64,000 nt of DNA, from positions 124,001-188,000 of the forward strand of contig JBEWZL010000267.1 in assembly GCA_045837725.1 (NCBI GenBank), written 5' to 3'. Positions 1 through 62,053 of this stretch are shown here, piece by piece. Within the stretch, counting starts at the first letter, position 1; each line of letters begins with the position of its first letter. Source of the DNA: Vermamoeba vermiformis. Taxonomy: Eukaryota. The position numbers were made by a program, and so were the translations under genes. The notes beneath the pieces were generated by a model. That model was not told the origin of the DNA and searched no databases. It saw nothing but the letters and a program-made list of their open reading frames with translations.

Positions 1-1284
1 GGTCTCTTCCCTGCTACTGATTATAACATAGTTAACCTACCACTGCTCTTGCTACCTGAGAAAGCTGCTTTGGATCTTGTTGAACAAGCAGTGGGCAGAG
101 AAAAAACTGCCATTCCATTTGTCAAAACTCTTGCTAAGGCAATGGTAAATTTATCAAAGTAATGCAAATATCAAACATTAACATGTAATCATCACTAGGG
201 TGGGTTGCCCAAAGCTTTGAACGCACTTGTAGCACAACTCAAAAGATGGTCAGGAACTGAAATAGCATCACCTATCAATCAAATATGGTCTAAGACATGT
301 GAGGAATTAGCCAAGAGTTACCGTTTTCCAAACAACTTAGATTTGCTTGGTCGACTAACATCAATGGCTCTATTGGACAAAGAATTGATAGCTGATCAAA
401 AAATTGGAGATCATACTATCATTGAATTAGAAGAAGAAGGTAACTCTGTTTTTTAATTGTGTTGACATACTAATCTTTGACCAATTAGGCTATTTTTTTA
501 TTCGAGAAAAAACTATTGAAAAAAAGTGCAAGATATCAATCCCTTATGTCCTGCTGTCTCTTTGGAAAGGAAGTAACAACTCATTTGACTTTGGAGATGT
601 ATTTTCAAGAAAGCAGTTTCCACCACTTTTGGACAGCAGTGATTTTAGAGAAATTTGCACTTTATTTTCAAGCCTGGAAATACTACGAAGAGAGCAAGCT
701 GGGCAATGCACTCACTTTTAAAGTACTGCACCATGGACAATGTCATACAAATGTTGAAAGAGTAACGTAAGAGTTCAGTTAATATGCAATTAAATGTGAT
801 ACTAATTCACTGCAGAGTATTGCCAACTGAAACAAACTTTGGTGTGGTCTTTTCAAAGCTTGATAATATAACTGATGAAAACTTAAGCAGTGGAGAGCTT
901 CCCCTTCTTAATGGTTCCATTAACCTCAAAGAACCCCCAGTTGCAGTTTGGTTTGGCCGAAATTGTGTTGGTTTAGATGCTATGTTACTATACAAGTCAG
1001 AAACACCTACTGCAATTTTATTAGAAGCAAAGCACACAATTCCAGGGCAACAAGCAAATGCAAAAGTGGAAAAGACTGAAATAGACAAAGAACGAGACGA
1101 CTTTGCCAAGCGAAGAGAGCAATTTGCAAAACATGGTAAAACAGCATACACAGCTTTTATTACAAACAAAGAGGTTGCTCTTCGAGCAGAACGGAAAAAA
1201 TATTTTGACATTTTTGTGGATCCTGAGAATTTCAGCATTTATTTTGGGCCAGCTTTTTCATTTTTGGTAGATGGTGGCCTATAA
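1..1284 (+). CDS. 5'-partial CR-effector-like protein: end of a STAND/AAA+-type NTPase followed by a PD-(D/E)xK nuclease-like domain; multi-exon
   Basis: Splicing GTAAAT..CACTAG (~145-198) gives AM-GGLPKAL (GxP-type motif). The last exon contains GLDAMLLY...ILLEAKH (D...ExK). Stop at 1284, AATAAA at ~1304. The frame between 573 and 648 needs either a 76-nt intron or a 1-nt frameshift. Confidence 0.65.
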
Positions 1285-1378
1285 TTACAAGTGGTTGTGT
1301 TTTAATAAAGAATAGATTAAGTTCATTGTACTTACAAAGGATTAAAGCCACCAATTACATAATGTACTACATTTATTG

Positions 1379-3312: not shown

Positions 3313-3488
3313 TGTATTCGCTCTAGTGTGACGATGTAGCCTTTCTTAATTATAACGGCATTAGCTTTGTGGTAATGATTATTAAAAATGATAATTAGTG
3401 CAAAAAGGCCGGAAGAAAAATTACTAATTTGATTCACTGAAAATATTCTTTCGAAAGATCATATTGCCAGAAAAAGACATGTTTTACG

Positions 3489-5549: not shown

Positions 5550-6294
5550 TACTACTTCACTGTAACTCAAGATCTAGTAACGTGCTACTGTTGAACAAAA
5601 TACTGGGACTCTTTTAGAAACAAGGCGCCATTTTGGCCGATTATTTGGAGGCAAAACCGAATTTTCTGAAACAGTTCTATTTGCTCCTACTTTAAGGGAC
5701 GTATCGAGTTCAACGATTAACTCCTCGTTTGGAGTTAAGTGATTGATAAGAAATTATTTCCCATCTTCGGTCGTGAGGTTTCTTCGGCGTTATTGGATCC
5801 AAATGAAAAAGTAGCCTCCAAAAATGATCGATAGAACATTCGATCGAATGGCAGACCAAGCAAACTAATACATCAAGATGATCATCTTCATATTCAGATA
5901 TTACCCAGTAGAGGCAGTGGATCCAGATTTAAACATGACTCGAGCTTTTGGCCTTCTTAAATGAACAAGCAGCAGTTAGAAATGCTTCAACAAGCTTTAT
6001 CGCCGCAAATATGGATTAAAATAATCGAATTTACTGCTAGTTTGCTAAGTGCTTACCCCTCAAAGCAATTTTAAATCCGAACATTAGCGCTACTCGTCGC
6101 TTCACGTGACTTAATATCATAAATAGCAAAGATATATTTCTTGCTGTTGTGCTGTATGAGCGGCATCTCGTGGCCCGTATGTTATTCCAACAAATCTGCG
6201 CGAAATCTGAAAATAAAAAACGAAAATAAATATCAAAAAGCCTTTCAATTTCATTTCAAAATAATACCTTAAACCACTACATACCACTTCAATA

Positions 6295-11411: not shown

Positions 11412-14400
11412 ATGTTACAAAGCGTAAAAAGAAAATTCAGCGATGCATTTGACGGGGTATATTCTGCCTTTGAGAAAGTTCGCTTAAAGAAGCCAAAGAT
11501 TGAAACAGACGATCCGATCTTCACTTTAAAGTCCGGTAATAATTATTTTGATATTTTTATAAATATTACTAGTAATTTTATCACCGTAGATAGCCATTCT
11601 GAACCGCAATTTTCATTTTTATTTCGGATTTAATATTATTTTTAAATTAGAAATCGCTCTATGGAAAGAATTACAGCAAATAGTCGAGAATGTCTTGATA
11701 TCGAACGTTAAAATAGTGGATTTAAAACAACGGGAAAAGGAACTAGCCGATACGCAAAGAAATTTATTTGGCGGATGCCTGAAGCACCCGTTTATTTTCA
11801 ATCCATTAAGCAACAGCGTCGACTTGCGATTTATGGCGCAAACGAATAACTGGACCGTCGATGATCCAGTTTACACTTTCATGGCGAAGCAAGCTCTCGC
11901 ACCGAAGTATCAGTTATACCTGCTACGTGCCGTTTCAGGCGCTGGAAAGACAGGTAAGACACGCCTGTTATTTCAACGCCTTAATATTAACACATTTCTA
12001 GGAACAATTTTGAACGCAGTAGCACGACAGGCGTATCTAATCTACGTACAGTGTGATTCGGCAAGAGGTGGTGTTGGAAGAGATTACGTAGGTAGATTGA
12101 CACTCAGGCGGCATTGTAGTGACTTTGATTAGGTTGATGAATCAGCACAGACTTTTACCCAAGAGCTGGAAAAAGCTCTAAACTTGGTGCAGGAGGAGGA
12201 CAAGAAACAAGACATTGCCTTGTGCCATTGCCAACTCTTTTGGCTCAGTCGAATTTTCATCTTATCCTACCTCAAAAAGAATCACTCTTTCTCACCAGAG
12301 CAGTGGATTTTTTGGTCAAACAATCGTGTAGGCAAAGCTCTGATTCAAAATGTGCAGCTGAATTTCATTAAAATGTTCGTACTTAACATGAAGCAGGAAG
12401 TACTAATGTGTCTTATTATAACAACAGCTTAGAAGATAAGGAATTGGAGTCAATGAAGTCATCCTTGAAATCAATTACACGTGAGGCAACAAGGAAATTT
12501 GGAGCTAAACTTTGGCTTGGAATAGATGAGGCTCAAATATTTCAGACTGTAATGGTTGGCAATAGGTACAAAGCAAGCAAAATAGACTTTAACTAATGCC
12601 ACTTTGGCCTAGATCATTGCTCCAGTTATTAACAATTGAGGCTACTGCAAATGCATCTAATCTGCATATGATTGTTGCTGGAACTCGAATATCATCCTTT
12701 GCAAAGTTGGTGCAGAGTGGAATTAACAGGAAACTGAACATTTTTGACTTGGCTGAGTCAAACACACTGGCCTATCCATATGTGACTAGTGACCAAGCAC
12801 TGATGTTGCTGTCATACCATTTTGACATGCACTCAGTCATGCAAGATGAAAGCCTCATGAAGAAGGCCAGGCACATCCTTCAAGGACGTTTGAGAAATGT
12901 TGTGCGGCTGTTCCAGCTGCTTCAAGATACAATAGAGGAAGATTCTAGCTTAGACTTTCCACAATTATTCTCAGTTGCTATCAACACTCTTGAACGAGAG
13001 ATTGAGGCATACATTAATGAACGACTTCAAGAGTTCTTGCAAAATCCTTTGATTAGAGATAAATGTAAGTCAACAACAACTGAAGCTTTGATTTAACACT
13101 TATTTAGTCCTTCTCCATCTGGTGACCTTGCTGTATGCCAGTACCAATAAGAAGAGTCAAACATGGGACATAGATGTATTCAAGCAGCGATTTGGTTGTG
13201 AGCCAGAAGACTCAGGCTTCTTGTTTTTTGAAAAGCGACAACTTGACATTAGCAAACCTGGTGAGTGTGAAGTAGACTCTACTCTTTGTCACTGATAGAC
13301 TGATATGGAGTTCTAACAAATTACATTATACAGCAAAGCGTCTCTATCAGTATTCAATTCGTGAAGATTATGTTAGGGATATTCTCCTTATGAACCCTGA
13401 TATTCGAAGTTTTAAACTGATGCAAGCCCTAGACCTTCTAACTGACCGTGTCAACAACACTGCGATTACACCACAAGAATTTGGAATGGAATTTGAACGT
13501 CTGATAGGCCATTTAATGGTAATAATATCACTTAAGCACTTCTTAGCTAATTATTGAATTTAGTTGTCAACTGTGAACAACATTGTGGATGCAAAATGTA
13601 AGCCTCGGCCAAGCTGGCTATCTCCACTTGTCTCAGAATGGAAGGTGGTCATGAGTTACACATGCTCCCAGTTGAATGAAGCCTTTGCAGTGCTAAAGGC
13701 TAGCTTCACAACTTACAGCCCCAAAGAGTTATGGAAACATTTGGCTTCCAATAATCCGCTGTGGAACTTCTTCTTTACGGATGACTACTCACTTTACACT
13801 CGCAAAGTACTGTCCGATGCAGCACTAGTCAAGTGCTTGCAGCAAGTAATCAAGTGTGAAGAAAACAAATCAAACAAGTATGGAGAGCTGCTATTTTTCC
13901 TGATACAGCCACGTGACATGTTACTTAATCCATCAACTCTCCTTGGCCCAGACATTGTTGGCTTCATCCGTGGTGGTAAGTAAAGAACTGAACTGAGTGC
14001 AAGTCTTCTGATGTCTTTCCTCAGGTTTTAACTCGGAAGTTTGCCTTTTCACTGCCTCAGTCTCCATTTATGAAAGCAAGAATGACCAAAAATATCAAAA
14101 AAATCAGCACAAGTTATCTCCCAACAATTTCTACTACAGTGAAAGAAAGAGAGGATACTACACAATTGCCAACATTTTAAAACCACTCAAACTCTCTTCA
14201 CTGCCAAGACTGAGCATCAACATTACTGTACCAAGTCCTGCAAGCCCTGAGAAGAAAAGTGATGGCAGAGTAGTGGAACTATCGATTGGAGAAGATGATC
14301 TTGAATGCCTTGACCCCAACTTTGCAGAAACAATCACCTTGTTGAAGGAACAACTTGCCAACAAGAGAGATTTCTGGGTTGAGGCAAAGCAATATGCAAT

Positions 14401-14464
14401 GTCACAGGACATTGATTTTGAGTCTGACACATTGCCCAACCCACCAAACACAGAAAACTGTTAA
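11412..14464 (+). CDS. CR-effector-like P-loop NTPase with C-terminal restriction-endonuclease-like region; multi-exon
   Basis: Walker A LRAVSGAGKT, Walker B LWLGIDEAQ, sensor-1-like MIVAGT, LQGRLR. Later FGMEFERLI and LLNPSTLLGPDIVGF (PD motif). GT-AG introns link the ORF pieces; stop at 14464. Confidence 0.7.
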
Positions 14465-14499
14465 ATAGTGGCACCACTTTTCTTGGCAGTTAATAAATT

Positions 14500-15854
14500 T
14501 TATTTAGAACAACTTTCTGTACAATTACAGCATGTGTAAATAGTTGGTGGTGAATCAAATGGAATTGGTGTCATCCAATGCCCAGTGTCAAAGGCATCTT
14601 GAACACTCTTATGCATCAGATTGATATAATTCTGTTAACAAATTAGATTGTATTGATGTGTTATGACGGCATTACCTTAATGATTGCAAACATTTGCATG
14701 ATGCTAGTTGTGTCAGTTTTCAAATCTAGACCTTTGAACGTGCAGTAACATTTTTGACCATTATGATAAAAATATATGCTAATGTTAACGACACTACCAG
14801 TATAATATATACCAAATGTCAAAGGTAAGTGGACATGAGCTTTGCAGTAATCCGATGGCAGACTCAGTTTATCAATGACCTTTTCTTGCTGCTCCCAGGC
14901 TAGTGCTTGAATTATAGGCATTTTCCACCTACAAAATATGAACGTAAGAAATCTACACTAAAACGTGCTTGTTGGATCCAAAACGCTCCAATGACTTACC
15001 AATCTCCTTCCTTGCAGCTTTCTAAAATCGATGCTGGCTTACTTTGAATGAGTAAAAAAGGCCAGCAACCCAGATGCTTAATCCAGGGGGTAAAATATTG
15101 CGATTGAATGCCGAATCCGAATATTCGATCCACTTCGATCCCACATCCAATTTGTGCCGAACTAAAAAACGTTAATTACGAGTCTTATTATAATAATAAT
15201 TGCAAAAGTTCACTATAAAAATTCACTTACCCAACTGACGACGCCTCCCAAGTTTGAAATCGGCGAAAAAATTCTGACAATTTGTTATGGCAGCGTGCAA
15301 TCCACTCTGCTTCGTTATTTGACGGAATTTTGCTTAAATCTGACAAAAAATCAGGCCCGGTGATGTAGGCACTATTTTCTAGTAATTTGAAGTCCAGCAA
15401 GCTTTTCTGTTAAAAACGAATCCGCTTAGTTATTTAAGTTATCGAACAATTAAGAACATATTAGTTAGTACCTCGTCTTGCGTTAAAGATGTTGTTGAGT
15501 CATTACTAGCCGCTGCTAAGTCGTTAAGAAGATCTCCTAAACTTCCAGGGATCGCGAGTCTTGCTGCCCTTTTGCCGTCCAAATTCAGTGCGTAATTTAT
15601 TTCATTATCAAGTACTAAGTCAACATTAAACGAAGAGTTGTCAATGGGCGTGATCCTACGAAGATCAGGAAATTAGTAAAATAAATCAAGTAAGGATATT
15701 TGCGAGGATATTAATTTACAATATATGAATATTATATCTATTATTTAAATTTTCTGCAATTTATTGTTAGCAAGGCAGAAATTCAATTAATAATTTCATA
15801 CGTTTTTGTTCGTTTTCCTCGCGGACGCGACGATATTCCTTCACCAGCGTCCAT
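14500..15854 (-). CDS. Nuclease-like (REase-fold) protein; kinase-less paralog of the 59551-62053 gene, 6 exons
   Basis: Spliced frame MDAGEGISSRPRGKRTK...KIPSNNEAEWIARCHNKLSEFFRRFQTWEASSV...WPFLLIQSK...HLPLTFGIYYTGSVVNIS...HW...CSK*. It aligns block by block with KIPTDNEGEWIAECHNKLSQLFRSFETWEANSV...WPFLLIESR...HVPITFGVYYTGSSVNIS. Confidence 0.75.
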
Positions 15855-15979
15855 ATTTTGAAGAGGTTGTCGTTGCTCGCTCATAGAGTAGACCTTTTGA
15901 TCGATTAAATTCGACTTGAGCAAATTATCTTCAAAAACGGCGGGAAAATCTTCGCGCTCCTTGCACCTTCCATTAAGTG

Positions 15980-17529: not shown

Positions 17530-17801
17530 AAGATCGGTGATCACTTTCAAAGCAACGTCAAAGCTGGCTTTATTATAAATGCCATTATTAGCGCTTTGGA
17601 GACGTTCTTTGGTGCGGTCTAACGGCCGTTCTTGTTGAATGATTTTGTTCGAACGATTTTTTCGTTTCTGTTGGTATCCTAACCTTTGTTACGAACACAA
17701 ATGCTAGTTCATTAATATTTATGACACATTCAAACGTTTTGTATCTATAAGGGGCTTACAAACCGCCTAGAATTGCACAAGGAACTTCAGATCCGAAATC
17801 G

Positions 17802-19491
17802 ATGGCAGATCTGGGTAAGTAACGGACCAAAATTATTACCAACCGTCAAATTGTCACATAAATATTATTACAATAATATCTAAAGTAATTTTGTCTCTTC
17901 GCTTTTGAACCTGACACGTTGCATTCAGTTCCAAGCATTAAGTTCGCCCGAACACGTAAGGTTTAATATTAAACGAATAATTAAAATACATATTATCTAA
18001 ATTATATCGACGATAGATGAAGACTTTGAGAAGTTCAGTTGGGATGAGGTCGTAGATTGGCTTGGATGGTGTTTCACGATGCCAAAAGACATACTCGTAA
18101 GTAAAATATGATAAAAATCAATATTTGCGTTATTTTTAAAGCCGGTATTAGTTGAAAGTATTCGAAAAAGTCGTAGTTGCTGCCGAACGAGACGCACTCT
18201 CTCCCAAAGAAACTTTTTTCGCCGCCGTCAAGCACAACAAATTAAACGAATATTTCTCAAACACTTGGAGCGATAAAATTACGACAGTTTTAAATACGTT
18301 GAGGGGTAAGTAATAAGCAACGATACTCGATATTTGCAGGTACTGATCTCTTACAGTGCTAACCATCAACGATCCAATTACGTGGCGTGTGCTTCATACT
18401 ACAACTAATGAGTACAATCAACTTTGCAAACACTACAGTACGTATTAATTTCCGTTGCATGACTTCCAAACACAAATTTAGATTCTAGACTACAGAGAAA
18501 TATGGTGTTTCAACTTGAACACTTCATCCAATACTTTGGAGATCTAGATCTTGGCAGTCCCCCAACATTAGAAGAATTTACCAAAGAAGGACCATCTTAC
18601 ACCTCGTTTGCACCAAACATTCAATTCGATCTTCGCTCTCTTGGTGGAGATCTTGGTAATCCTAACAAGCAAAGCTCAATTGTCGATAGTATCATGGACT
18701 ACTTGCAAAAAGGACACAATGGCCAAGTTCATCTGTTGGTTGGTGAGTCTGGAATTGGCAAGACAAAGGCACTATTTGACTTGGCACGTGAAGAATTTGC
18801 CATCTATTTGGACTTCTTGCTGGCCAAAGATGCAGTTCATTTTCTAAAACAACTTGAACTGTTACTTGAACAACATAATGAGGCAACCTATTACTCAGAA
18901 TTTTTGCCAAAGTTCCAGAGTCTTGTTTTGCAGTTGATTGGAGCAAGAATTGTTGGGCTAATATCCACCATGTTAAAACACCCAGAGTTAACTTGTGAAC
19001 AATGGCTATTACGGCAACTCCATGCAGGAGCTGAATTCATTCCAATTCAAGCAATGTGCAAGGCTTACTATGGTGACAAAGATTTGATTGCGTTAAGTAG
19101 CTTATGGAAGAGCATCAGTAATAACAAGAGGATCATAATCCTTTGTGATGAAGCACAGCTACTGACTGTCATAGGCAAAGGGAAATTCAAACCCTTTGTT
19201 GTCAGTGAGAAGACTGGATTTACACAGAGTGCATACAATTCATTTGTTTATACTGCAATAGAGTTTGGTGCAGTTTGTGTTGCAGGCACCTCACCTACAC
19301 TGCTAGAAATAGAGATGGATACAGTCTCTGGCATTCAAAAACCTGACAAAGATTTGCCTATTCTCATTGAGAAGCACTCCAATTTTTCATACCCAAAAAA
19401 GAGGAAGATTGACAATGTGGAGCTTGTCACAGATGATGCTGAGCAACACACTTCTCATCTTCATCTGACCAAGAAACCCAAGAGCAAGTGA
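17802..19491 (+). CDS. CR-effector-like NTPase with small helical (SAM-like) header, C-terminally truncated (no nuclease), 6 exons
   Basis: ATGGCAGATCTGG|GTAAGT start. Spliced header FEKFSWDEVVDWL, Walker A LVGESGIGKT, Walker B ILCDEAQ, VAGT. Same family as 11412-14464 (EQW motif). Ends shortly after PKKRKID. Confidence 0.75.
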
Positions 19492-21527: not shown

Positions 21528-23260
<1,733 letters not shown>

Positions 23261-30473: not shown

Positions 30474-33233
30474 ATGGACCTGACATTGGACGAGAACGCG
30501 CTACGTGATGAAGGAATTATCAGATCTTCGGAAGATGGTCATGAAACAGTGCGGGAATTACGCAATAATAGGATAGATATTACGGAAAGACTATTTAAGG
30601 TATCATTTAACTCAAGAGTCATGTTAAAATGCGAATCTGATCGGTTTTTTTCTGCAGACTTTGGTGCGTGACTTGCGCGTTACTAAAGAACAGGAAAATA
30701 TGTTTAACATTATTAAAGACCATAATATATCACCAGAGTATAATAAGAAGCTCGGAGAGATTCTGAAAAAGACCGCCGAAATACATCTCAAGGTACATCT
30801 AGCGAACGGCAACCAAATCATGAATAACCTATTATTAATGATATAACCTTATGCTTAGATAACTCAATTCTTCCAAATGGATCGTAATGGATTCTTCTGG
30901 CTCACTAATATTTATCTTCCGTTGTTAAACGAGATCTCGTTACACGGAGTTATCAGCGGGTATGCAGCCTTTATATATGAATATAAATTAATAGTAACGG
31001 TTAGACAATCAAAGTTGGCCATAGAAGCTGCTACACGACAAGAAAAAACACGACAAATTTTCCGCGAAGGAATTACGCCGGATCTATGCGACGGATGGTT
31101 CTTAAAAATGGCTGAGAAAACGACTGATAGCAATAAGAGCGATTGTATATTGCGTACTCCTCTCGGAGAAACAATATATCTAAGTCAAATACCAACGCTG
31201 AACGAATTTTGTGGCGATGCAAATATTCTCGTGCCAGATCTCTTCGTTGAAATCAAACAAGACGGCAAATCTAACGCCGATAAGTACGATTATAGGCATC
31301 CGTGTAGTATAATGACTATATACTAACGTTAATAGTAGGGCGAAGTTACATCTTTTGATGGGCCAATCAGCGCGTCTGTTCGCGGATGTGGTCAAACAAT
31401 ACCCACTCATCTTTGGACTGACCTGCGAGGCACATATTATTACTGGCTACGTCGCCTATATCAACTCGAATGGTACTTTAAAGTCTTCTACGATTAGTGA
31501 GTTTTCAAAGGGAAGTGCAGATCCAGCAGCGATCAGATCCGAGCAAAACAAAATCGATCAGAAAATTGCCACGGAGGATAATCAAGAGCCTTATACACAA
31601 ATACCATCTTATTATCAGATAATAGAGCCTTTATTAGCGCCTAATTCACAAGATGAATTGACCGGCGCTCAAGCGGATCCAGCACTTCCCGTTCACGTAC
31701 ATCATTTATGGACGGTGGATTTAAACGACCCAACTAATTACATGCTCCTTGCAGGCCATTTAGCAAAAGTATACAAGATTAGGTACGTCATAAAGCTATA
31801 GATATACTTTGTCGCCTAATATATTTGCAGATTGAACCAATTTAGAAATTGGCGCGAGAGCGACGCCGTAAAAAATCTTCCATTTCAAAAACCCGAGCAA
31901 AAACAATCGCAAAAGCCAAATGAAGATATTATCGATGCAAATGAGTCATATTCAAGTTCGTCAAGTGGATCCGGGTGCAATCAAAGTACCGACAAGAACA
32001 ACGAACATAAGACACCAACGAAATTAATTGACTTTTTAAGCAAGTATGGATTTACACCACGTGACGGCTATAACCTTAGCGTAAGCAATAATAATACTAA
32101 TAAGAAGGTGATTTTTATTAACGAGTGTTTTAGGGCGGAAATACGTTTGTTTTTCGTGGATGTATGACGGAGAGCGGATCTGCAGCAATGTTCAAAGGGT
32201 TTAAGTACCTCGATGATTTTGCAGCAGAGTTATTTGTGTACGAGCACTTAATGAAAACAGACTACAAACACATGCCTAAAATGTTCAAGTACGAAGGCAC
32301 CGAGGATCTGTGTTACATTATCGCTGAGGACCTTGGCGATGAATCCTTGAAATTTTATACGAAAAACGACGTTAAGTTATTTGCGCTTGATTTGCTCACG
32401 GTAAGCGTTGAAATTAAACTAGTATTAATGGTAAAATTATCTTTTTTTCGGGATCCACCGAAATAATTTAACTTTTTTGCAAAAGTACTAAAGTACGTCA
32501 TATAGAACTAGTTATATTGATTTTGTATTAAGGTAACGAAGGTACTTACAGCAAGTAATTGTTGTTATTTTTAGGCAGTGGATGCGTTGCACAAAAGGCG
32601 AGTCATTCACGGCGATTTGAAGCCTAGTAACTTGCGGTACTTAAAAGATAAGCGTATCGTCAAGGTATTTGATTTCACTTATTCATCGAGCGTTAAGTAC
32701 ACTCATCTAGCGTAAGTACAAGACAATAATAATTAAAAAATTATTTATTTCCAAATTAGGGCTGAATGCCTCGGTTACACGCACGGTTATGTATCGCCTG
32801 AAGTGTTAGCCACGAATCAAGTTACAATTGCCGATGACATGTTCTCCGTTGGAATGATCTTGGCTTCAATCGTACGTACTAGTTATTACTAAATAAGGAA
32901 ATATTATGAGAACAATAGCCAGATCTGCAAATCGTTTTCATAAAAAAATGAAATAACGTTTATAAATTCCTAATTAGGTGTATGAATTCAAACCGAAGAA
33001 CGATGACGATTACAAACGGGTCCGCAACAAGATTGAATCGAATGAATTGACGCCGTTATGCAGTCCGTCAATGCTGGATCTGATTGATCAATTATTGAAG
33101 CCTGCGACAGGTAATAAGAGCTCTTATTTAAAACTTCCTTATTGATGGATCCATTAATAATGATCTGTTTAAAGAGCGAATATCAGCCAAACAAGCGTTG
33201 GATTCTCGTTTATTTGTATCTGACGAGATATAA
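30474..33233 (+). CDS. CR-effector-like PD-(D/E)xK nuclease + protein kinase fusion; multi-exon
   Basis: Nuclease ITPDLCD...DLFVEIK...IFGLT; low-complexity linker; kinase AMFK, VIHGDLKPSNL, VKVFDFT, GYTHGYVSPE, DDMFSVG, RISAKQAL. Confidence 0.8.
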
Positions 33234-44340: not shown

Positions 44341-46127
44341 ATGATTAAACGTGCTCAATCGTAAACAGAGAATTGTCATTTCTCAAAACTCGCTCTTTCT
44401 GGTCAAGCAAGCCACAAAAACAGGCAAAAAGGCAATCCGCACGCGACACTACACGATCTCCAGCGCAAGCAATACCAGAGGAAGAAAAAAAGAAAAACTT
44501 TCCCGTGAACGGTGCTATCGATGCAAAGAAGCGGCTTCTCTATTGCTATGTCGATCCAGAACCACAAATTAACCGGACTCTGATCCCTGGAATTCGTAAA
44601 GGATCTTACATCATGCTACACGGTCCTCGTGCTTCAGGCAAATCAACGTTAATGTTCCGAGCTCAAGAATTGTTGAAGGATGAATTTGTTTGCCTCACAG
44701 TTTCAATCCAAGGCTTAAACTGCAGCGGTGTCAAAATATTCTGGAAAGAATTCAGTGCAGCTCTGCAAGAAGAAAACAAGCACGTAAAAGTTCCTCTTAT
44801 GGCTTCAGGTGGTGATTTTCGACAATTTTTGGCTTCTTCAAAACAGACAAAGTTATTTGGAGGAAAGAAAGTTGTTCTTTTTGTTGACGAATTTGATACA
44901 CTCTACGGTGCACCTAAAAAAGTGCTCGACTCAATTTTGAACACACTGCGAGCAATCAAGCAAGCAGGAGAATCATATTGCCTGCAATCTTTCATCGGTG
45001 TTGGACCCTTCAGCATTCTGGAGTTAACTGGCCAAGCAACTTCTCCTTTCAATATCAGAGACGCCATGCAACTTCAGTACTGGACAAAAGAACAAGTGCA
45101 TCACTTATTTGAACAACACTACACCACAGTAGACTCCAAGATTATCGATGATATCTATGAAAGGACAGCAGGCCATCCTGGTCTTGTTTGCATTTGTGGT
45201 AAACAGATTACTACGTTGCAGATCAGGACATACCAAGCATGGCTGGAATATGCATTGTCGAGGCTATTAGCAGATGTGGCTTCATGGCCGACATTAATCA
45301 AGATGGAGCAAGCATTAACTAGAAGTGATCCAATGATAGAGGCAGTGAGAGCAGTGCTCAGAAAATGGTTTTTGCCCAACCTTACTGCACCAGTGGATAT
45401 TGATGTCAATTCTCAAGAGGTCAAATATTTGGCTGCCGAAGGAGCTCTGATCGCAGTACCACCAAGTGATGCAACATACAGAATACCATCGCCTTTCATC
45501 CATCAATTATTGCAACAACGAGTGAATGTAGTCGACAAGCACCGTGCTCCTGTAAGTCCTGTTCCATGGTGTTCTGTCCGTGGCCAAATTGGGAGGAGGC
45601 TCGATGTGCAACAATTGCTTGTGCAGGCAATTGCTTGCATCAACCCTGTGGTGATCGACACTGCACCAAGAGTTTCTTGGAAGATTGCTCAAGTACCTGG
45701 GCTACAACGAGCATTTGTACCACAAGAAGCTGTTTACCACACTGAATTGTTTGCCATTCTACGAGCTTGGCTGACATCTGATGTGTCTGTGTTCAGTGAA
45801 GTCAATGTGAAGAAAGCAAACTCAACACAATATTGTGACTTGGCATTGAAACACCCTAATTATACAGCATTGTTAGAGTTGGTAGCCACAGCTCCCATTG
45901 CCCAGATTCAGGAACATATTAATCGAGCTGCTACATACAAAGCAGAGCTCAATGCAGAAGAGGCATGGGTCATCAACTTCACAATGCAAAAACCCACTGA
46001 AAACTACATGTACACCTCAATTACCAGTCATGACGTCAAGATATTGCATGTGTGGCATGATGAAACTTTCACTGAAGTGGAGTACTGGAGTTATGCAGAT
46101 AATGATTTTATTCCTATTTTACGGTGA
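44341..46127 (+). CDS. CR-effector-like AAA/STAND NTPase + PD-(D/E)xK nuclease; 2 exons
   Basis: MIKRAQS|KPQ via intron 44361-44407. Walker A LHGPRASGKST, Walker B VLFVDEFD, SPFN, TAGHPGL; nuclease EAVYHTEL...VFSEV...YCDLAL...LLELVAT...AWVINFT. Confidence 0.85.
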
Positions 46128-48509: not shown

Positions 48510-51500
48510 ATGTCAAAAGCACCACAAGTAACCATAAATGAGCTGGTTGAAAATAGTAAGACCACTGTACCAATATTAAGGCAAATATTAGAATACTACC
48601 GGAAGCAAAAGACGGATCTTCAACATCCAACGCTGAAGGCAGAGTTGCAGGAGCTCCTGCGGCGTTGTTTGGCAAATAATAATTTGGTGCATATTAAATT
48701 GTATAAAAGATATGGAAATAACCTTGTCTTCCCTCCAACGGTGGATTCGAAATCCGATTCAGATTTGGCCTCAAACGTCGAAGCGAAATCAACAACTGGT
48801 GGCGAGGTTAACAACGAAAATCATTCTTCTATAATTCTAGCCTCTTCGAAGAAGCCTACCAAGCAAATCAAAATCAAGGTTGCAAAAACTGCTGAAAATG
48901 GCGCGCGAAGCGGATCCGAAGCAAAAAAACATGGTAAATGCCGTTTAGTAACATAGTAAGGGTCACAGCCATTAATGATTCGTTATTTAGTGATATCTAC
49001 TGGAATTTTGGCCGATCGGCCTTTTCAATCTAAATCTTATGAATCAACGCCATCAAAATACGCTCATATTTGGGAGGTAATTGCAATCTGCTTGAATAAT
49101 TGTTATTAGTACTAAATCTGCGTTATAGATGCTCGACGAAGAGACAAAAGACTTTACTGAAATTTCAGGTCACAATTTCAATGAGACGCACTTAAGACAG
49201 GCAAAAATACATTACGATATAGAAGCCGATATGAATATTACGACCACAAACGATTCTCTTCCGAAATTCCCTTGGCTACTGTTCGATATTAACGAGATCC
49301 CAATGCACCAAGATCAAATGAAGCACTTAAATGCTGGCGACGTTAAAAAGATAATTAAATTGGAAGACAAGTACGATATGAACGAAGGTGATTGGACTAT
49401 AACTCACGTTAACGACGATAAATGGGAGCAACATTTTGGCGACATCAAATCCCGATTTAACAAGAGACGAATCGGGTTTGAAACACATATCGAATTGATT
49501 GCCGACACATTTTGCGCCATTTTTGGCTTGACCGAGATGTAAGTACGGATCCGCTAAAATTATTTTTCAAACATGTTTTTTAGGCGATACTATAAACTCC
49601 ACCATCACCCAGGATTTGATATATCTCCTTTTGTTAAGCCTGATGTATCAGTGTCGCATTGGATTTTGAGCCCCAGCACAGGCAAAGTTTACGCAAAAAT
49701 AGATCACCCAATGACGCCGTTATTGGAAGAGTTAGCGTGTAAAAAATCTCAATGGTTTCCGCTCGTTAGTCTATCAGTATTGCCGCATATTGTAGTTGAA
49801 TGCACCCAAGATCCCGCTGGCGATAAAAGCGACGTGTAAGTGTCAGATCCGATCTCGTTGACATTTTGACACTTTAAATTAATAAGCATACTGAACGACG
49901 ATTAACCGTTCTTTCAGCGTTAAACTATTGATCGAGATGGCTATGATCCGAGATTTAGAAGAAAGATTTTATAAGAAGCCTCGTCGTTTTACTCTCGGTT
50001 TCTACGTCAGACAGCAAAATTGGCAAGTGTTCGTGCTCGAGAATACAAATAAGGATCCAAATTTCAAGTACGAAGCGCATCGTGTGGCCAGCTTCGACCT
50101 TACCAACGACTACTTGACATGGCTCCAGCTTGGTGTTGTGATGGTGCGTTTGGCAGCGTACCAGACTTCTTGCACGTTGAAATTGGTTCCGAAGACAAAA
50201 GAAGAGTTGATTGACGTCTTAGAAGAAGCGAACACGATTTTGACCCAACGAGCAAATACTACCCGCCACCAGAAGCAAATCAAGGATGCACATAATGCCG
50301 TAAAAGGATCGCCTGCGCAAGAAAAAGAGCACGAAGAAGGCCACTGAAAAGAACGAGACTGCCTCGAATGACCACAAAGACAAAAAAGGAAAAAAGAGAA
50401 AAGCGTGTCATGACAGTTACAATGAAGGTCCAGATCGCAAAAAATTTAAAAAAGACTCGAACAACAAAAACGATCAGAACATCGACAATAGCTACGAGAA
50501 AATTGAAAAGCAACTGCTAGAGAAGGAGGGTCTTATCTGCTCGGTATGGCTTATTGCCACAATATTGTGATTCTAGACTAATTTTTTCTATATAGGGATA
50601 CTACACGCGAATTTATCGTTGCTTCGATGAAGTTACTGGCAAGGAGATTGCCATCAAAGAATTCGATTCTCCATCTGAAGGATATCGCGAAGCAGGACTA
50701 TTAAGCAGACTTCCAGGTACGGTAACAGACAATTATTTTTTTGCAGTTCTCATCGGAAGTAGCTCCGAAGTTGCTTTTCGTCAGCGATCTAACTAACGTT
50801 GCTATTGAAGGTCCGGGCATTGTGAAGCGGGTACGCGGAGAATTCACTGAACTGAACGGCAAGGTGCAAATATGGCTCGAGTTGTTATCGCCCCTTCCTG
50901 AGTACAACGAGCTGCACGATTTGAAGCACTTCATGCGTGGGTTTTTGGAGGTACGATAGTCGCAATTTGTCATAATATTAATGTCATATTAGGCATTGGA
51001 TTATATGCACTTTCAAAATTTTATTCACGGTGACGTCAAACACGACAATGTTATGGTAGATCCGGAGACGAACGAAATCAAACTGATCGATTTTGGCGTA
51101 AGTAACCAGCTCATGCTATAGTATATTATTAACGTTTCGATGTATGTATAGTATTCTGTGGAAATTTGGCCTGGCTGCACTTGCCGTTATTTTCACGGTG
51201 GCACACACGTGTATTTTGCGCCGGAGAGAATTTACGACGAGCCTCAAACGAACAAAATCGACGTTTTCTCGGCAGGTCTTGTCTGTGCTGAAAAGGTACC
51301 TTTATATATTGTAATAATACAGGCTAATAACTTTGTGTATGTAGATGTACGGTGTTCAGATCCGATCGTTAAAGACGCGTGAATTGTTAATTAAGAAAGT
51401 TGACGAAGGAGAATTGAGTGGATTAGCCACGGAAGAAGGAGGCTAGTATATAGATGTATTATATATAACGGTAGCTAATCGATAATATTGTGTAGTGGAT

Positions 51501-51602
51501 CTTCTTCAGCAGATGTTAAGAGAAGATCCAGATCAACGACTCAGCGCAGACGAATGCCTTCAGCATCCATTCTTAAACGATAATATGGATGTTTCATATT
51601 GA
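48510..51602 (+). CDS. CR-effector-like nuclease + kinase gene with an apparent +1 frameshift at ~50302 between the domains
   Basis: Nuclease-like KPDVSV...HIVVECTQ...TLGFYV; kinase IAIKEF, FIHGDVKHDNV, KLIDFG, GGTHVYFAPE, IDVFSAG, RLSADECLQHPFL. Confidence 0.75.
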
Positions 51603-52103: not shown

Positions 52104-54976
52104 ATGGATAATATTAATAATAATTTGCCCGAGAAATTAAAAGTAGAAGCAGATCCAAGTCGAGATTTTATCTCTTCTGCTTACAAAAAAAGAAAAATAG
52201 AGGACTCAGAACCTGAAGATCGCGAAGCAAAGCGAATAAAATTATCGGCCACCTCTAATATCGAAAATACGCAGCCGGAAAATCCTGCATCTGCAACAAA
52301 AGACAAGCTCGATCCCAGTTTTCCCGCACAAAGAGATGAACCACGAGCAAACAATAACAACCAAATAGAGCCATCAATTGATGATATTAAGGAGCCGCGT
52401 ACGTTAGCCTCAAACAATTACTTACGTATTAAAATTGCTTGTAGTCCCAAATCTGGCTCTGCCAGATGTTCTTCGCTGTGCGCCAAAGCGAAAATTCGTC
52501 GGCAGCTTGAAAACGCTCGTTTATGCAGTAGAAAATGAGTCGTAAGTCAAATAATTGTAAAATAACAGTTTCTGAGCGTTTAGAATTAGATTGGAACGAC
52601 TTTGCGCTGATTGGGGTATTTTGCCGATGAACCAGGGCCTTCCAATGGATTTATCCAGCCTGCCTTTTGCATCGCTCGTTGACGATGGCAACGCCATTCA
52701 ATTAGCTGAACAGTTGATTGAAGTACTTGCGACAGTAGTAAGTTTAATATTAAGGAACAGTTTTTTGATAGATGGTGAAATTTCATTAAAACGTTATTCC
52801 TGAACGAACGTTATTCCGACCAATTTTCTGCATTAAATGTTAGCGAAAAAAATCACGGTCATCCCTTAAAGTTCTACGGTCCTAATAAAATTTTAACAGG
52901 TTGCAAATTACAAGCCACAGCAAATTATAGAGCAAGATTTATTTGCTGAAATGCGTCGAATTATTGCAACTGCCGTCGGCCAACAAATTGCGACGAACAA
53001 TTCTGCGGATCTGTTGAAAACACTCGCAAAGATGATTCCCGACTCGTTATTGCTTGTGAACTGCTGGGCGTTTAAATCAAAACTGACTAATGCCTTAGAG
53101 CAAGACTTAATGAATCGTAAGCTGTATTCAATACTGTTCGAGCCGTTTTTCAAGTCCCAAGGATCGTAAGTCAACCCGGATCTACTTAGAATTTATTCTA
53201 ATATCGAAGAGATGCACATTAATGCCACTCCCGCCACCTTTTACGGCCTACAAACGACTTTCTGACCTACGAGCTTTTGTCGTCAAGAATGGCGTTGAGT
53301 TCATTTACTTCATTCATGAAAACAGTTCGAACAAAGGAACGATGAAATTTCACAAAGATCTTCACAAGTTGATTCAGCTCATGCGGTGCGCGCTACGCCT
53401 GCAAATATCGCACTTGACGCCATCGGATGATAATGTTCGAACGCTCTACTGCTTCGGATTGCTGACGTCTGGCTATAGCGTGCAATTGTTTCAAATGAAA
53501 GTGCACTTAACGTCAGTTAACGCTTACGCAACTCCAATTTATGAGCTGTGGGCCGAGCCTGAAGTCAACTTGATGAGTTTTGATAAGGATAGCCTTGCGA
53601 CACTTTTGACGTGGCTTGCTGGTATTAGGTTTTACCGTCATAGCCTTAAAAAATCGCTGGAAGCGTGGCAAACAACAACTACGTTACCAAGTGTGAAATT
53701 TCAAACCTCAAAAACACCAGCAACGTCAGGACAAGACAACCCGATAGACGATCAATCTCCATCCAATGCTAACGAAATCAAGGAGGACAAGTCCGAAGAC
53801 GAAGGACCAGATCCGAACAACCAAACTACGGGTCGCGATGACTCGACTGTTGATAGCGATACCCTTAATGCAATCATCCATGGCATCAACAACAATGAGC
53901 ACTTCCTTTTGCAAGAGGTACGGTCATTTGACGTTGCTGTCAGTGCCAGTGAATCTAACACTTTTTCAGAACGTCAAGTACAACAAGCGAGTACTTCTCG
54001 TGTGCACGACTGTCAAGCACGTGAGACTGTTTGTAGTCAAGATCTACGGTGCTGAATGTGACAAGATGAATGAAATCGATGTGTTGAAAGTGCTCGGACC
54101 ACATCCGAACATTTGTCAACTTTTAGCCGTCACCAAGCTTGCCAGTAAGTTCAGCAAATTAAATCAATGTCATTTGTCTAACAATTACAAATAGCCGGTG
54201 AATTGTTGGCCGTGCAGCATTTGTACGAGAACAGCGATCATTGGTACAACAGCTACGAGCAAAGTAACAAGTTTCCATTGGTGTTTCTTCAGCTAGCAAA
54301 GGTTTGTATCCTTTCCTATCATCAGACAACAATGCTAACGGCGCCTATTGACAGGGTTTATCGCATGTACACGATTGCGGCGTCATTCACGGCGACATCA
54401 AGCCCTACAACTTCATGGTGGACTCGGATTGCAATACACGCCTCATCGACTTTGACTTCAGTGCTCGCGTTGACACTGGTAAGCTCTCTTAAACGCTTTG
54501 AAAGGTCACATATTAATCAACAATAGATGACATAGAAAAGCTTGGTGGCACTAAGGGCTACTACGCACCTGAGTGGTACGAGCAACACAAAGTCGCTACT
54601 GGAGATGGCCCATTGACATTCAAAATTGACATTTGGAGCCTAGCCATCACTATATGTCAATACGTACGTTAAGTAAGATGGCATTTGAAGCACGCTCATT
54701 TCTTCGTTATCAGGCAGGTGTAGACTACGGCGAAGCGACTGATCCACTTGAACGACGGAAGTTAATTCTTCGAGAACTGCAACGTGAGACGTAAGCAATG
54801 GCTTATTAACGACTTGATGATAAAAACCTAGTGACAGGTTCTTGTTGTGGCCGGTGCGTAGTTTGATTGAGCGAATGTTGGCGATTTGTCCGAATGACCG
54901 ACCAACTGCTTCGGAGGTGTTTCACGAGCTCGTGAAAGTGTACGGCGATTGCGAAATTTTTGGAAATGAAGGTTAA
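52104..54976 (+). CDS. CR-effector-like nuclease + kinase fusion; multi-exon
   Basis: Bipartite NLS-like KKRK..AKRIK; nuclease LSDLR...FIHENSS...HKDLHKLIQLMR...CFGLL; kinase FVVKIY, HPNICQL, VIHGDIKPYN, LIDFDFS, GGTKGYYAPE, IDIWSL, RPTA. Confidence 0.8.
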
Positions 54977-55214
54977 TCTGCTACTACTGCTCAGTTCTTG
55001 CACAGCACTCGAACGGTGGCAAAGTTGATCTAGATCGAGATGGTTCTCAGAGATTTTTTTGTCCAACGCTTTCATATTTATTGGCTGATGAATATGAAAT
55101 TAACGAACACCTGCGGTTTAATCGCGATGCAAGATCCGCTTTACTTTACGCCTCCCGCGCATTTTTTTTGAACGTTGAGGATCGAACACTACTCAGCCGT
55201 TCATCGAACTGAGC

Positions 55215-56616: not shown

Positions 56617-56702
56617 ATGCAAGCTACAAGCGCATGTCTATATAAATATTATATTATACATTTATGCAGAATATGTTTTGATGTTAATGGTACAATAATT
56701 TT

Positions 56703-59331: not shown

Positions 59332-59550
59332 AATAAATAATATTATATTATACAGTTGTCTTATATTTACAAATAAATATCAAAATGATTGCAAAAAGCG
59401 CCAAAAAGTTTATTTTCGGCTGTGCATCCGTTACAAGCACACTATATGTATTTACATATGAATACAATTTACAATGTATATTAGTAGGAAATACTCTAAG
59501 CTACCACTGATTTCTTCACGCAAACACATCCACATTATCTGAACGCAGAT

Positions 59551-62053
59551 CTAACTTTGACAAGTTTTGACGCGTTTGGAGGGTGAGACAGGCACGGCAG
59601 AGTCGAAGAAGGGATGTTTCAACGCACTTTCAATGCTTATTCTACTTTTCGCGTCCCTCACGATCATTTTGCGTGCCAGATCCAACGACACCTCGCTGCA
59701 CAACGTCGCTTCGACGTACGATGTCTCTCGATGCCTTGGTTGAAATTAAAATCCATTATTTAATTACTATAACGTACTTGGCCTTCCATTGCAATGCTTG
59801 CACTACATCATCACATAGTGCTAGTTCGTTGGCTTGTTGCATCGATCGAATGACAACTCCGCACATCTGTTGAAGAAACTCGTGAGCAACATATGTATAT
59901 TATTATTATTACACGTACTAAGTTCGCGAGGACTATTCCAGCGCTATAGACGTCGCTCGCAGGAGTTTTGAGTAGATCCGGTGCGCAGTAGCCAGGAGTG
60001 TGCGCTTGTGTCTCGCCACCAATCGTCGTAGCGCAGCCAAAATCAATCAAATATACGCTTTTAGTGACGTTATCCCACAATATATTGCTCTCTTTGATGT
60101 CGTTGTGAACAATGTTGTGTTGATGGACCTGATCCAACGCCTGAGGTAGATCCGTTTAGCTTCGTAATGATAATATATCTTATTTTACGTACTGTCAACA
60201 ATGCCTTCATGAATATTTGCAGCTCAGATTGTGAAGTGAAGTTCAAGGGATGAACACCACGACAATACGACATGGTCAGTGTGATGTTCTCGCCACGCAA
60301 GAGTGGTTTGTCGAGCACTTTGGGCACGCACGACAAGGCACGCAAGTGTTCCAAGACAACGTACTCGCGCTTGCCGAGGTCTGTTCGTGTTGTTTTGACG
60401 ATGTACTGGTGTTGCTGATCGATGGTCACAAGATCCACTCGCGTGCGATGATTCTGAAAGATAAATTGATTAATACGTTAAAAATGTTGCAGATAGTTCA
60501 AGTACATGATCCTATAATAATTGCCTAGGAGTATATTATTCTCACAAAGTATACTCAGATCCGATAATAGCACGACATCTCGGTCAATCCCCCGCCGTGC
60601 TAATAATTCTTTCTAGCATAGTTATGCAATATTATTATATAACTTGAGGACCTTATTATATGTGCTATATCTGAAAGTAGCGCATGGTTGTAATATGGAG
60701 CGGTAAGGGTTGAGATCCAGCGGTGGAAAAATGGATCTTGCCGAACTTGATTAACTCACCTTATAAAGTACTTGCACATTATTATCTAATGACAACGACA
60801 ATGCATTCGACAGCGTGTTTGACTTGCTCGTTGAGGGTGCAGGTTTCTTTTGTAAGGTCTCTTTAGGAGTACCAGTACTATTGTCTCTGTTGCTTTCAGA
60901 CACATCAGCCTCCTCATTCTCATCATTCACTGGTGTTGCTTTCGTAATTTTCTTCCAGTGATTTGATTGCAGTGCCTCCACGACAGTTCGGTGAGCTAGA
61001 TCCGTGTACCTCTATTCGAAAATCATTAGCCAGGAATCATTGCACGAGTAAGTATATTACTGTTATGTATACCTTCATAATGTAGAGGACTTTAAGGACG
61101 TGCTCTGGTTCTTCTTTCAGATCCAAGCTCGGGAAAGTGAAGAAGTACTTTTCGTTATCTAGAACACAGTAGACGCTTATATTAACAGAGCTACCAGTAT
61201 AATAGACGCCAAAGGTAATAGGCACGTGTACCCAGACTTTGTAGTCCTTCTCTGGTAGTTTGAATAGTTCCAAAATACGCAGCTGGTGCTGGTACGCGAG
61301 ATCTTCAATAATAGCCATTTTAAACCTAATCAATTAGTTTTATTAAAATGTAACTTTATATGACTCTTACGTGTCGCCAAGCTTATCGTTGTTAGCGTAC
61401 GTCTGAGATCTGCTCTCGATCAGCAAAAACGGCCAACGAATACCAGTAGTAGACCACGAAGGAAATACTCTCTAATAGAATTAATAATTGTACGAAGAAT
61501 TTAAATGATTCAGTATTACCCGTAAGTTTTTATGCTTTCTGTTGTTTGGATCAAGAAAGTCAAATCCAAAAATGCGATCTGGTTTGAGACCAGCGTCGAT
61601 GACGGCAGAACTAATCGCGAACAAATTAGAAGGTTAAAGTATTATGGTACTTACACGACGGAATTGGCTTCCCAAGTCTCAAAGCTACGAAACAATTGCG
61701 ACAATTTGTTGTGGCATTCAGCGATCCATTCTCCTTCATTATCAGTTGGAATCTTATTTAAGCGCTGCTTGAACTTATCGCTTAATATATGATCGCTATT
61801 GCCTGCATCATAATCGAGAAATGCTTTCTAAAAAAAGTTAAAAATAGTAGATCGAGCAGGATCTACGAAGTACCTCTTCATTGGTTAATTCTATTAGTTT
61901 ATCCGTGTCGGTAGCTGCAATTAGGTCGTAAAGTAGTTGTTTTAGCGTCCCTGTAACCGCTATAGGCATATTTTCTTCAGCTTCAACGTGGTTGATCTCG
62001 TAGCTGTCCAATAAAGCCCTATCGAATATTCGCTCTTCAAATGTAGTATTCAT
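59551..62053 (-). CDS. CR-effector-like nuclease + kinase fusion; multi-exon, 5' end uncertain
   Basis: Nuclease-like FLDLTF...WPFLLIESR...ITFGVYY; kinase YIVKT, REYVVL, IVHNDIKESNI, YLIDFG, HTPGYCAPD, SDVYSAG, RISIESALKHPFF. Upstream exon-like pieces (62100-62330) contain stops. Confidence 0.8.

Follow-up and report, generated by a model that had tools for sequence, protein, structure and literature searches.

Ten fast-diverged ATPase and protein kinase genes in a 64-kb stretch: a possible cluster of Crinkler/RHS-type modules without headers

Research on Crinklers has mostly dealt with their role as effectors, delivered into host cells by pathogens of plants and animals, and their N-terminal header is thought to mediate this delivery. 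The window analysed here, a single stretch of DNA of 64 kb, contains ten fast-diverged ATPase and protein kinase genes (N1–N4, K1–K5 and R) in an intron-rich genome. These genes would be Crinkler/RHS-type (CR) modules without headers, and the kind of architecture is already known. In the excerpts of PMC5289972 that report Zhang et al. 2016, the two C-terminal architectures named as most common in CR proteins are NTPase+REase and REase+kinase, and such proteins are present in free-living eukaryotes as well. No headerless Crinkler-type gene cluster is mentioned in the titles and abstract openings of the literature on DUF7034, FunK1 kinase-nucleases and amoeba Crinklers. With about even confidence, we interpret the cluster as lineage-specific intracellular paralogues that arose from parts of CR toxin modules and are devoid of the N-terminal delivery header. 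Headerless copies among housekeeping genes would support the idea that ATPase–nuclease and kinase modules primarily serve the cell that produces them.

All ten genes were found where the initial annotation had placed them, since the spliced models reproduce them; the 5' exons of N3 are uncertain (Table 1). The coordinates are those of splice-aware models, which for every gene other than K4 may contain mis-spliced coding stretches. The genes have many introns and are placed between housekeeping genes. F-box genes, another expanded family, are also abundant in the window, and tRNA genes are absent from it. In three RNA runs that bear the same species label, 7, 7 and 11 reads fell on positions 44000–63900; most of these were partial fits, and the housekeeping gene OGG1 was left uncovered.

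Table 1. Positions and composition of the ten genes in the window.
Gene	Position	Strand	Description
N1	1..1284	+	3' part, cut by window edge; exons 1-144, 199-439, 489-572, 637-766, 816-1284
N2	11412..14464	+	P-loop NTPase gene; 10 exons, 831 aa; spliced model
R	14661..15884	-	Kinase-less, 298 aa (model); paralogue of K5 N-terminal part
N3	17639..19491	+	P-loop NTPase gene; main exon 18482-19491; 5' exons uncertain (initial annotation: start 17802)
K1	30474..33145	+	Kinase gene; N-terminal region ~440 aa; Pkinase exons 32575-32709 (2.3e-07), 32761-32871 (1.1e-05)
N4	44341..46127	+	Essentially single exon; ORF 44349-46124, 592 aa
K2	48510..51446	+	Kinase gene; N-terminal region ~560 aa; Pkinase exon 50993-51097
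K3	52104..54976	+	Kinase gene; Pkinase exon 54355-54477
K4	56703..~59262	-	Kinase gene, ~660 aa; exons ~59262-59188, 59114-59025, 58978-58196, 57915-57361, 57260-56727
K5	59551..62053	-	Kinase gene, 10 exons; N-terminal part paralogous to R

The link to Crinklers is provided by N4. After a basic N-terminus of ~45 residues come an AAA+/STAND-like ATPase that includes a helical/winged-helix part (residues 46–398) and a C-terminal restriction-endonuclease-like domain (residues ~455–545). The protein matches Pfam AAA_35 (PF14516) with 37.3 bits at a cut-off of 27, the match covering only profile positions 129–248 of 331. A library search returned 915 matches at E<=0.001, 108 of them at E<=1e-30, and the named relatives are from both fungi and Amoebozoa, Rhizophagus proteins included. 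Among 47 aligned near-full-length relatives, AAA_35 was present in 33 and the Pfam Crinkler domain (PF20147) in 7 (best E 1.3e-26); in a per-protein scan six of the Crinkler matches were over the cut-off and one was under it. Judged by sequence, N4 is thus part of a family in which the Crinkler N-terminal domain is borne by other members. Among N4, K4 and K5/R, the genes covered by such searches, N4 alone showed homology to modules of header-bearing CR proteins.

The AlphaFold model of N4 is of good quality (pLDDT 88.1, pTM 0.81). In its C-terminal part, helix 460–474, strands 480–488, 493–502 and 505–513, helix 517–533 and strand 538–545 are predicted, and this alpha-beta-beta-beta-alpha-beta order fits a PD-(D/E)xK core. 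Three acidic residues are conserved among the relatives (Glu460 and Asp497 each in 44 of 46, Glu510 in 42 of 46). The canonical Lys of the ExK motif is absent, because position 512 is Val, Leu or Ala throughout the family. Therefore, nuclease activity of N4 is not assured. Matches to PD-(D/E)xK-type Pfam families in the relatives were all sub-threshold (CoiA_nuc in 1/47, PDDEXK_3 in 2/17, HSDR_N in 1/17). Searching the PDB by sequence with N4, its family profile or the K4 exon gave P-loop matches only or nothing, and a Foldseek search of N4 against a viral library gave generic AAA+ matches only. When 15 exons were scanned with PADLOC, a single marginal match was obtained, to N4 at E 0.0085. 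For N1, N2, N3, K1–K5 and R, no Pfam, PADLOC or PDB match supports a nuclease.

Four genes had been assigned to the NTPase class at the outset. Three of them (N2, N3 and N4) have a Walker A motif, whereas the part of N1 inside the window has no P-loop, and the class of N1 is therefore a putative one. The last exon of N1 encodes a canonical C-terminal D...E-A-K motif; N1 has no Pfam match, and profile comparison does not relate it significantly to N2, N3 or N4. N2 carries its Walker A motif within ORF 11590–12129 and a C-terminal D...E-S-K motif, and has no match in Pfam or PADLOC. N3 ends directly behind its ATPase, without a nuclease part. It is weakly similar to Pfam AAA_22 (20 bits, under the cut-off), the Atlas clusters nearest to it consist of hypothetical proteins from fungi (score 0.93), and its Walker A region aligns to the N4 family profile with a probability of 86%. 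Outside the Walker A motif, the profile comparison detected no significant similarity between N1–N3 and the N4 family, and hhalign found none between N1 or N2 and the N4 C-terminal domain. An ATPase followed by a PD-(D/E)xK-type domain is most likely the layout of these proteins, predicted from the structural model for N4 and suggested by motifs for N1 and N2. N3 would then be a truncated copy that consists of the ATPase only.

Five further genes had been described as nuclease–kinase fusions. The kinase half of this description holds for all five, as each of them matches Pfam Pkinase (PF00069, cut-off 31.7 bits). Scores are 94.1 bits for K4 (1.2e-26), 65.9 for K5 (4.9e-18), 40.8 for K2 (2.2e-10) and 39.8 for K3 (4.6e-10); K1 reaches 30.9 and 25.4 bits on two short exons, each singly under the cut-off. 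K1–K3 were scanned as single exons. The catalytic-loop Asp and Asn were recognized by eye in all five models, and DFG is changed to DFT, DFD and DFN in K1, K3 and K4. K1–K5 look like catalytically intact Ser/Thr kinases. The strong mutual divergence noted initially is confirmed: kinase domains are pairwise 27–36% identical, and the N-terminal parts lack BLAST similarity to one another except for K5 and R. Unrelated kinases are usually about as similar, and these values therefore do not establish that the five share an ancestor.

The nuclease half of the description is a matter of short motifs only, with no match in Pfam or the PDB and no significant profile. By eye, a common pattern recurs before the kinase in K1–K5 and likewise in R: a strand with Asp, a hydrophobic strand with E-x-K/S/R/T at its end, a helix and a strand with F-G. 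Comparison of the K-gene N-termini with the nuclease-like domain of N4 by hhalign was not significant (probability 1.7–4% for K4, below 1% for the others); among K1, K2, K3, K4, K5/R, N1 and N2, the motifs lined up with each other for K4 only. The N-terminal region of K3 shares one motif block with K4, and the similarity of the two is at E 0.0025 with the K4-family HMM and at E 0.0018 with a probability of 15% in hhalign. An AlphaFold model of the K4 exon from 8 sequences was unusable (pLDDT 42.3), and the exon stops inside the putative domain. In word-based protein searches, a weak test, no longer protein matched the K4 exon, and the K5/R alignment likewise had no match. The motifs suggest that the N-terminal regions of the K proteins may contain a degenerate nuclease-like core.

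R shares this region with K5. R, initially described as a nuclease-only gene, is indeed present and kinase-less, but its nuclease assignment comes down to short motifs, with a D...Q-S-K motif seen by eye. The two proteins are 39% identical over 277 aa, and the similarity is also found at the level of exons. The region before the kinase of K5 is also encoded by a gene of its own, R, which points to an autonomous domain. The K5 exon 61061–61324 scored 24.6 bits against DUF7034, under the cut-off of 27.

These observations bear on a more conventional explanation, in which the genes are ordinary lineage-specific expansions: normal signalling kinases whose regulatory N-termini are unrelated, housekeeping or other AAA+/STAND ATPases, old tandem duplication, and chance D...ExK motifs in the kinase genes. 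The apparently intact kinases, the failure of Pfam, PDB, AlphaFold and profiles to back a nuclease in the K genes, the conservation of K4 at a level expected for an ordinary gene (see below) and the richness of the window in F-box genes as another expanded family all fit this explanation. It does not account well, however, for the Crinkler headers fused to N4 relatives, for one short motif pattern at an equal place before the kinase and in R, or for R as an independent version of the K5 N-terminal part. We consider it possible but rather doubtful, and retain headerless paralogues from CR modules as the preferred interpretation.

The exons of K4 were taken from the spliced orthologue P0173 by tblastn, a protein of 663 aa that is 75% identical across both halves. 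Six close relatives have identities of 69–93%, and a metagenome scan yielded a single short K4 locus with 77–79% DNA identity. At the sequence level, K4 is a real, conserved gene. Quick turnover, which had been proposed for the cluster, is not borne out by these values, since orthologues of K4 at 69–93% identity do not show it. K4 also exceeds the cut-off of 24.1 bits for FunK1 (PF17667) with 35.4 bits (36.6 for P0173), over positions 278–379 of 387 only and beneath the far stronger Pkinase match. Crinkler-header-bearing relatives of K4 and K5/R were not found, the word-based searches giving close orthologues or nothing.

Evidence for a header in the window itself was equally negative. Pfam Crinkler had no match among 89 window ORFs, and an HMM built from the headers of six N4 relatives gave a best E of 1.4 against window ORFs of at least 20 aa; both searches are blind to headers split by introns and to header types outside Pfam. 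In a hydropathy scan, none of nine models had a hydrophobic N-terminus or a transmembrane segment. The initial statement that signal peptides and LFLAK headers are missing thus stands within the limits of the hydropathy scan and the local header HMM. Basic clusters of the KKRK type are present in N3, K2 (KKGKKRK) and K3. An intracellular location is reasonable, because headers, signal peptides and transmembrane segments are absent and some of the proteins have such nuclear-localization-like clusters. For the same reasons, the ten proteins probably act within the cell that produces them, as far as their sequences indicate.

Alternatively, the proteins might be effectors that leave the cell by unconventional secretion into prey, hosts or competitors. 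Relatives of N4 do possess the Crinkler header, and the excerpts of PMC5289972 and PMC6131194 describe many Crinklers as lacking a signal peptide, with alternative secretion being possible. Against this stand the absence of a header from all ten genes, the absence of signal peptides and the nuclear-type basic clusters in several of them. Export of these proteins is unlikely, and we regard this explanation as a whole as improbable. The excerpts of Voss et al. 2018 (PMC6131194) report that Crinkler-like proteins of Rhizophagus irregularis are mostly without a signal peptide as well, and a cytoplasmic action was suggested for them.

The initial annotation had also considered still-mobile elements, which is not sustained by the data. 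None of the ten genes is flanked by terminal inverted, long terminal or direct repeats, and no DNA-level repeats link them to each other; repeat families were detected only in an F-box tandem pair and in a Lys/Glu-rich stretch. An active or recent mobile element, or its decaying remains, with a transposon-type ATPase and a nuclease would furthermore be at odds with intron-rich genes amid housekeeping genes. In the fold search with N4, which comprised residues 46–398, archaeal ATPases and NLRs matched much more strongly than TnsC and MuB did. A mobile origin in this sense is therefore very improbable.

Returning to headerless intracellular paralogues, the N genes most likely would encode ATP-gated DNA-binding nucleases. 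Their AAA+/STAND-like ATPase with the winged helix might act as a switch or oligomeriser and the C-terminal PD-(D/E)xK-type domain as the effector. The K genes would encode kinases behind long, very divergent and possibly nuclease-like N-terminal regions, and R such a region alone. A likely context would be genetic conflict, the recognition of self and non-self, or cell death. A role against viruses or endosymbionts, as proposed initially, is purely conjectural. It is unlikely, though conceivable, that the locus is a cell-autonomous immunity or conflict island of a free-living eukaryote, in which NLR-like ATPase-nucleases and kinases with a new, degenerate nuclease-like sensor or effector domain are directed against viruses, endosymbionts or non-self nuclei.

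Several known systems can be compared with the cluster. The Rhizophagus irregularis set was gathered via an LFLAK-type N-terminus, which is absent from the genes described here. CRN8 from Phytophthora infestans is said in the excerpts of PMC11064341 and PMC5289972 to contain an REase4 domain. Like this REase+kinase type, K1–K5 have a C-terminal Ser/Thr kinase after a long region with a D...E-x-K/S-like pattern. Unlike it, they are headerless and the nuclease proposed upstream has no sequence or structure support; the likeness is one of described architecture. Libraries do not recognize the large N-terminal region of the K proteins; its fold would decide whether the REase+kinase architecture reaches them. 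N1–N3 are not tied to any CR subfamily.

With the archaeal Walker-type ATPases PAB2304 and SSO1545 (PDB 2qen and 2fna; Pfam ATPase_2), N4 has a likeness of fold, which does not imply a shared function. AAA_35, which N4 and most of its relatives match, is a family without established function. In comparison to STAND/NLR NTPases such as plant resistosomes, CED-4 and bacterial Avs, N4 has neither a repeat-type sensor nor an N-terminal effector, and its effector-like domain is C-terminal. N4 was also considered as a full STAND/NLR-type NTPase, a candidate that was rejected for the missing repeat-type sensor domain. If the immunity island were real, a eukaryote would have its own equivalent of the STAND/Avs-type defence of bacteria, made from headerless Crinkler modules.

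A close known counterpart of N4 is the NTPase+REase type of CR proteins. N4 differs from it in having no Crinkler/Ubl header, no signal peptide and, family-wide, no Lys in ExK. It likewise consists of a P-loop ATPase followed by an REase-like domain, and its homology to proteins with a Crinkler domain extends over the full length. N4 offers a confident model in which an NLR-like ATPase is joined to a nuclease-like domain, and this combination is biochemically testable.

The window is eukaryotic, its G+C content is 35–44%, and short GT..AG introns are numerous. Of 126 ORFs (stop to stop, at least 90 aa), 89 entered the Pfam scan; the remaining 37, overlapping these in other frames or strands, were left out. 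Gene models were built with a purpose-written splice-aware gene finder trained on confirmed coding ORFs of the window; it rebuilt both the tRNA synthetase and the DNA polymerase gene, making small errors. The model ends agree with those proposed in the initial annotation, and therefore the ten genes studied here (N1–N4, K1–K5 and R) are present.

Features of the window with strand and supporting evidence
Feature	Position	Strand	Evidence or remark
N1, putative ATPase class	1–1284	+	
N2, ATPase class	11412–14464	+	
N3, ATPase class	~17639–19491	+	
N4, ATPase class	44341–46127	+	
K1, kinase gene	30474–33145	+	Pkinase, E 2.3e-07
K2, kinase gene	48510–51446	+	Pkinase, E 2.2e-10
K3, kinase gene	52104–54976	+	Pkinase, E 4.6e-10
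K4, kinase gene	56703–~59262	-	Pkinase, E 1.2e-26
K5, kinase gene	59551–62053	-	Pkinase, E 4.9e-18
R, kinase-less gene	14661–15884	-	
Tandem F-box-like pair	1382–3462, 3489–5549	-	~50% protein identity
RasGEF gene with F-box (7960–8253)	~7960–10941	+	Pfam scan
F-box/ankyrin gene	19839–21353	-	Pfam scan
F-box or F-box-like gene	35041–35473		
F-box-like gene	55215–56616		
Class I (Trp/Tyr-type) tRNA synthetase	21426–23260	+	Pfam scan
DNA polymerase delta catalytic subunit	24361–28533	+	Pfam scan
Condensin II CAP-H2	end at 40239	+	Pfam scan
OGG1	46767–48377	+	Pfam scan
Small gene	28785–29621	-	Product start resembles ribosomal protein L24e/biogenesis factor RLP24 (by eye, model)
Lys/Glu-rich coding repeat	7228–7340		21–24-base periodicity; host gene with sub-threshold CAF1A acidic-region match

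Our interpretation of N4 is that it belongs to an NTPase+REase family of Crinkler/RHS-type (CR) proteins but has no header. A search of 1.84 billion cluster representatives with its ORF (592 aa) returned 915 relatives at E ≤ 0.001, 108 of them at E ≤ 1e-30. N4 was aligned with 46 near-full-length relatives picked from the 150 matches listed (n = 47). AAA_35 is matched in 33 of these 47 proteins and the Pfam Crinkler N-terminal domain in seven (best E 1.3e-26); scanned singly, six of the headed relatives lie above the cut-off (P0022, P0027, P0035, P0037, P0043, P0050) and one below (P0018). Relatives with a source name include fungi (Rhizophagus, Mortierella-like fungi, Apophysomyces, Ramaria, Serendipita and the chytrid Obelidium) and amoebozoans (Nolandella, Vannella, Tieghemostelium). 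Database neighbours and named relatives come from fungi (Mucoromycota, Basidiomycota, chytrids) and Amoebozoa alike, and the family spans major eukaryotic lineages. Where a source is named, the headed relatives are fungal, whereas P0002, the second-best relative (43% identity, full length), stems from an amoebozoan transcriptome.

The AlphaFold model of N4 calculated from the 47-sequence alignment has a pLDDT of 88.1 and a pTM of 0.81. In a fold comparison of residues 46–398, matches were the archaeal ATPases 2qen (score 22.2) and 2fna (20.9), plant NLR resistosomes (19.6, 19.1), CED-4 (15.3), ORC/Cdc6 (14–15) and TnsC/MuB (12.5–12.9), and the Foldseek result was concordant; ATPase hits took up the lists of the fold searches. 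The C-terminal 150 residues are predicted to follow the order helix, three strands, helix, strand. Conserved residues of the family are Glu460 (44/46), Asp497 (44/46), Glu510 (42/46) and His523 (44/47), and the position of the canonical Lys is occupied by a hydrophobic residue. PD-(D/E)xK-type matches among the relatives are all sub-threshold (CoiA_nuc in 1 of 47, PDDEXK_3 in 2 of 17, HSDR_N in 1 of 17). A nuclease fold at the C-terminus of N4 is likely, and its nuclease activity is putative.

Of the four genes assigned to the NTPase class, N2, N3 and N4 contain a Walker A motif, whereas N1, truncated by the window edge, lacks a P-loop in its window part; its sole motif is a C-terminal D...E-A-K. 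N3 ends directly after the ATPase, 345 bases short of the end of the opposite-strand neighbour gene, and therefore has no nuclease part. The N4-family HMM matches N4 alone within the window.

The five K genes had been described as nuclease plus kinase. Their kinase half is supported by Pkinase matches on the catalytic-loop exons of all five, but for the nuclease half there is no Pfam match above the cut-off. For the N-terminal regions of the K genes and R (330–560 aa) the best sub-threshold Pfam match was DUF7034 in one K5 exon (24.6 bits, cut-off 27). A PADLOC scan of these regions and a PDB sequence search with the K4 exon, the sole one searched, gave no matches. AlphaFold modelling, suggested initially as a check for nuclease folds, yielded a fitting C-terminal domain in N4 but an unusable model of the K4 exon (8 sequences, pLDDT 42.3). 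This exon has close relatives only (n = 6, 69–93% identity). P0173, from the same cluster, is an uninterrupted ORF of 663 aa, 75% identical to K4 across both halves, and served to set the K4 gene start. Because genomic K4 has stop-bearing introns and the P0173 contigs comprise at most 2607 bases, P0173 is most simply explained as a spliced transcript from a relative. A genomic K4 orthologue occurs in a metagenome locus (77–79% DNA identity).

In profile comparisons, K4 and K3 share a single block (E 0.0018, probability 15%; HMM E 0.0025). The alignment of K4 with the nuclease-like domain of N4 pairs the Asp and the Glu of one with those of the other, yet with a probability of only 1.7–4%, and K1, K2, K3 and K5/R gave no coherent alignment with this domain. 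Inspected by eye, K1–K5 and R have one order of elements in common ahead of the kinase: first an Asp strand, next a hydrophobic strand with E/Q-x-K/S/R/T at its end, then a helix, and finally an F-G strand. Since short patterns of this type are frequent by chance, the "nuclease + kinase" architecture of the K genes is unproven.

Strong divergence among the genes was confirmed: the kinase domains are 27–36% identical, and the N-terminal regions lack BLAST matches to each other except for K5 and R; R has no kinase and is paralogous to the N-terminus of K5 (39% identity over 277 aa). Likewise, the proposed absence of headers and obvious signal peptides holds in a header HMM search and a hydropathy scan. 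An HMM of six Crinkler headers gave a best E of 1.4 against all window ORFs of at least 20 aa. In nine models no 10-residue stretch within the first 40 residues attains a Kyte-Doolittle score of 1.0, and none of 19 residues attains 1.8 anywhere. KKRK-type clusters are found in N3, K2 and K3. DNA repeats of at least 40 bases in the window are confined to the tandem F-box/membrane gene pair (1382–5573) and the Lys/Glu-rich coding stretch; none flanks any of the ten genes.

F-box or F-box-like genes are unusually many (three with a Pfam match, three by eye from the motif in the models) and make up a further expanded family alongside those of the ATPases and kinases. In the tandem pair, the C-terminal half of the 3489–5549 copy is hydrophobic in the model, and a 179-base stretch (3135–3313 versus 5372–5550) shows 96% identity, a possible trace of gene conversion.

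In DNA run X1, position 55111 is connected directly to 57111 on one contig: 1999 bases are absent, and 8 letters of other sequence stand at the junction. The depth there is 186.8 versus ~450–580 nearby, and the shorter side comprises only 30 letters. This join may represent a deletion allele lacking the F-box-like gene 55215–56616 and the K4 3' end. Clustered base differences scattered over 46973–60226 on alternative X1 contigs, at about one third of the local depth, suggest that at least two haplotypes or nuclei were present in the material sequenced. Three RNA runs (X11–X13) under the species label of the best DNA holder gave 7–11 reads over 44000–63900, leaving even OGG1 uncovered; this label may stand for another strain or a mixed sample.

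Taken together, the initial observation is confirmed in part and its interpretation supported in part. A defence or conflict role of the ten genes is a reasonable guess, and purely conjectural. As reported in a review (PMC5289972), Zhang et al. 2016 assigned a little over a quarter of the C-termini of CR proteins to NTPase+REase and about one sixth to REase+kinase, found CR proteins in free-living eukaryotes and proposed inter-organismal conflict as their original role. According to Voss et al. 2018 (PMC6131194), most Crinkler-like proteins of Rhizophagus have no signal peptide and may function in the cytoplasm of the fungus. Going by these accounts, both the architectures and the notion of copies that are not secreted have already been published. 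Word searches of an open-access literature library found no headerless Crinkler-type clusters. New from the window are the dense headerless cluster and a confident model that links N4 to NLR-like ATPases.
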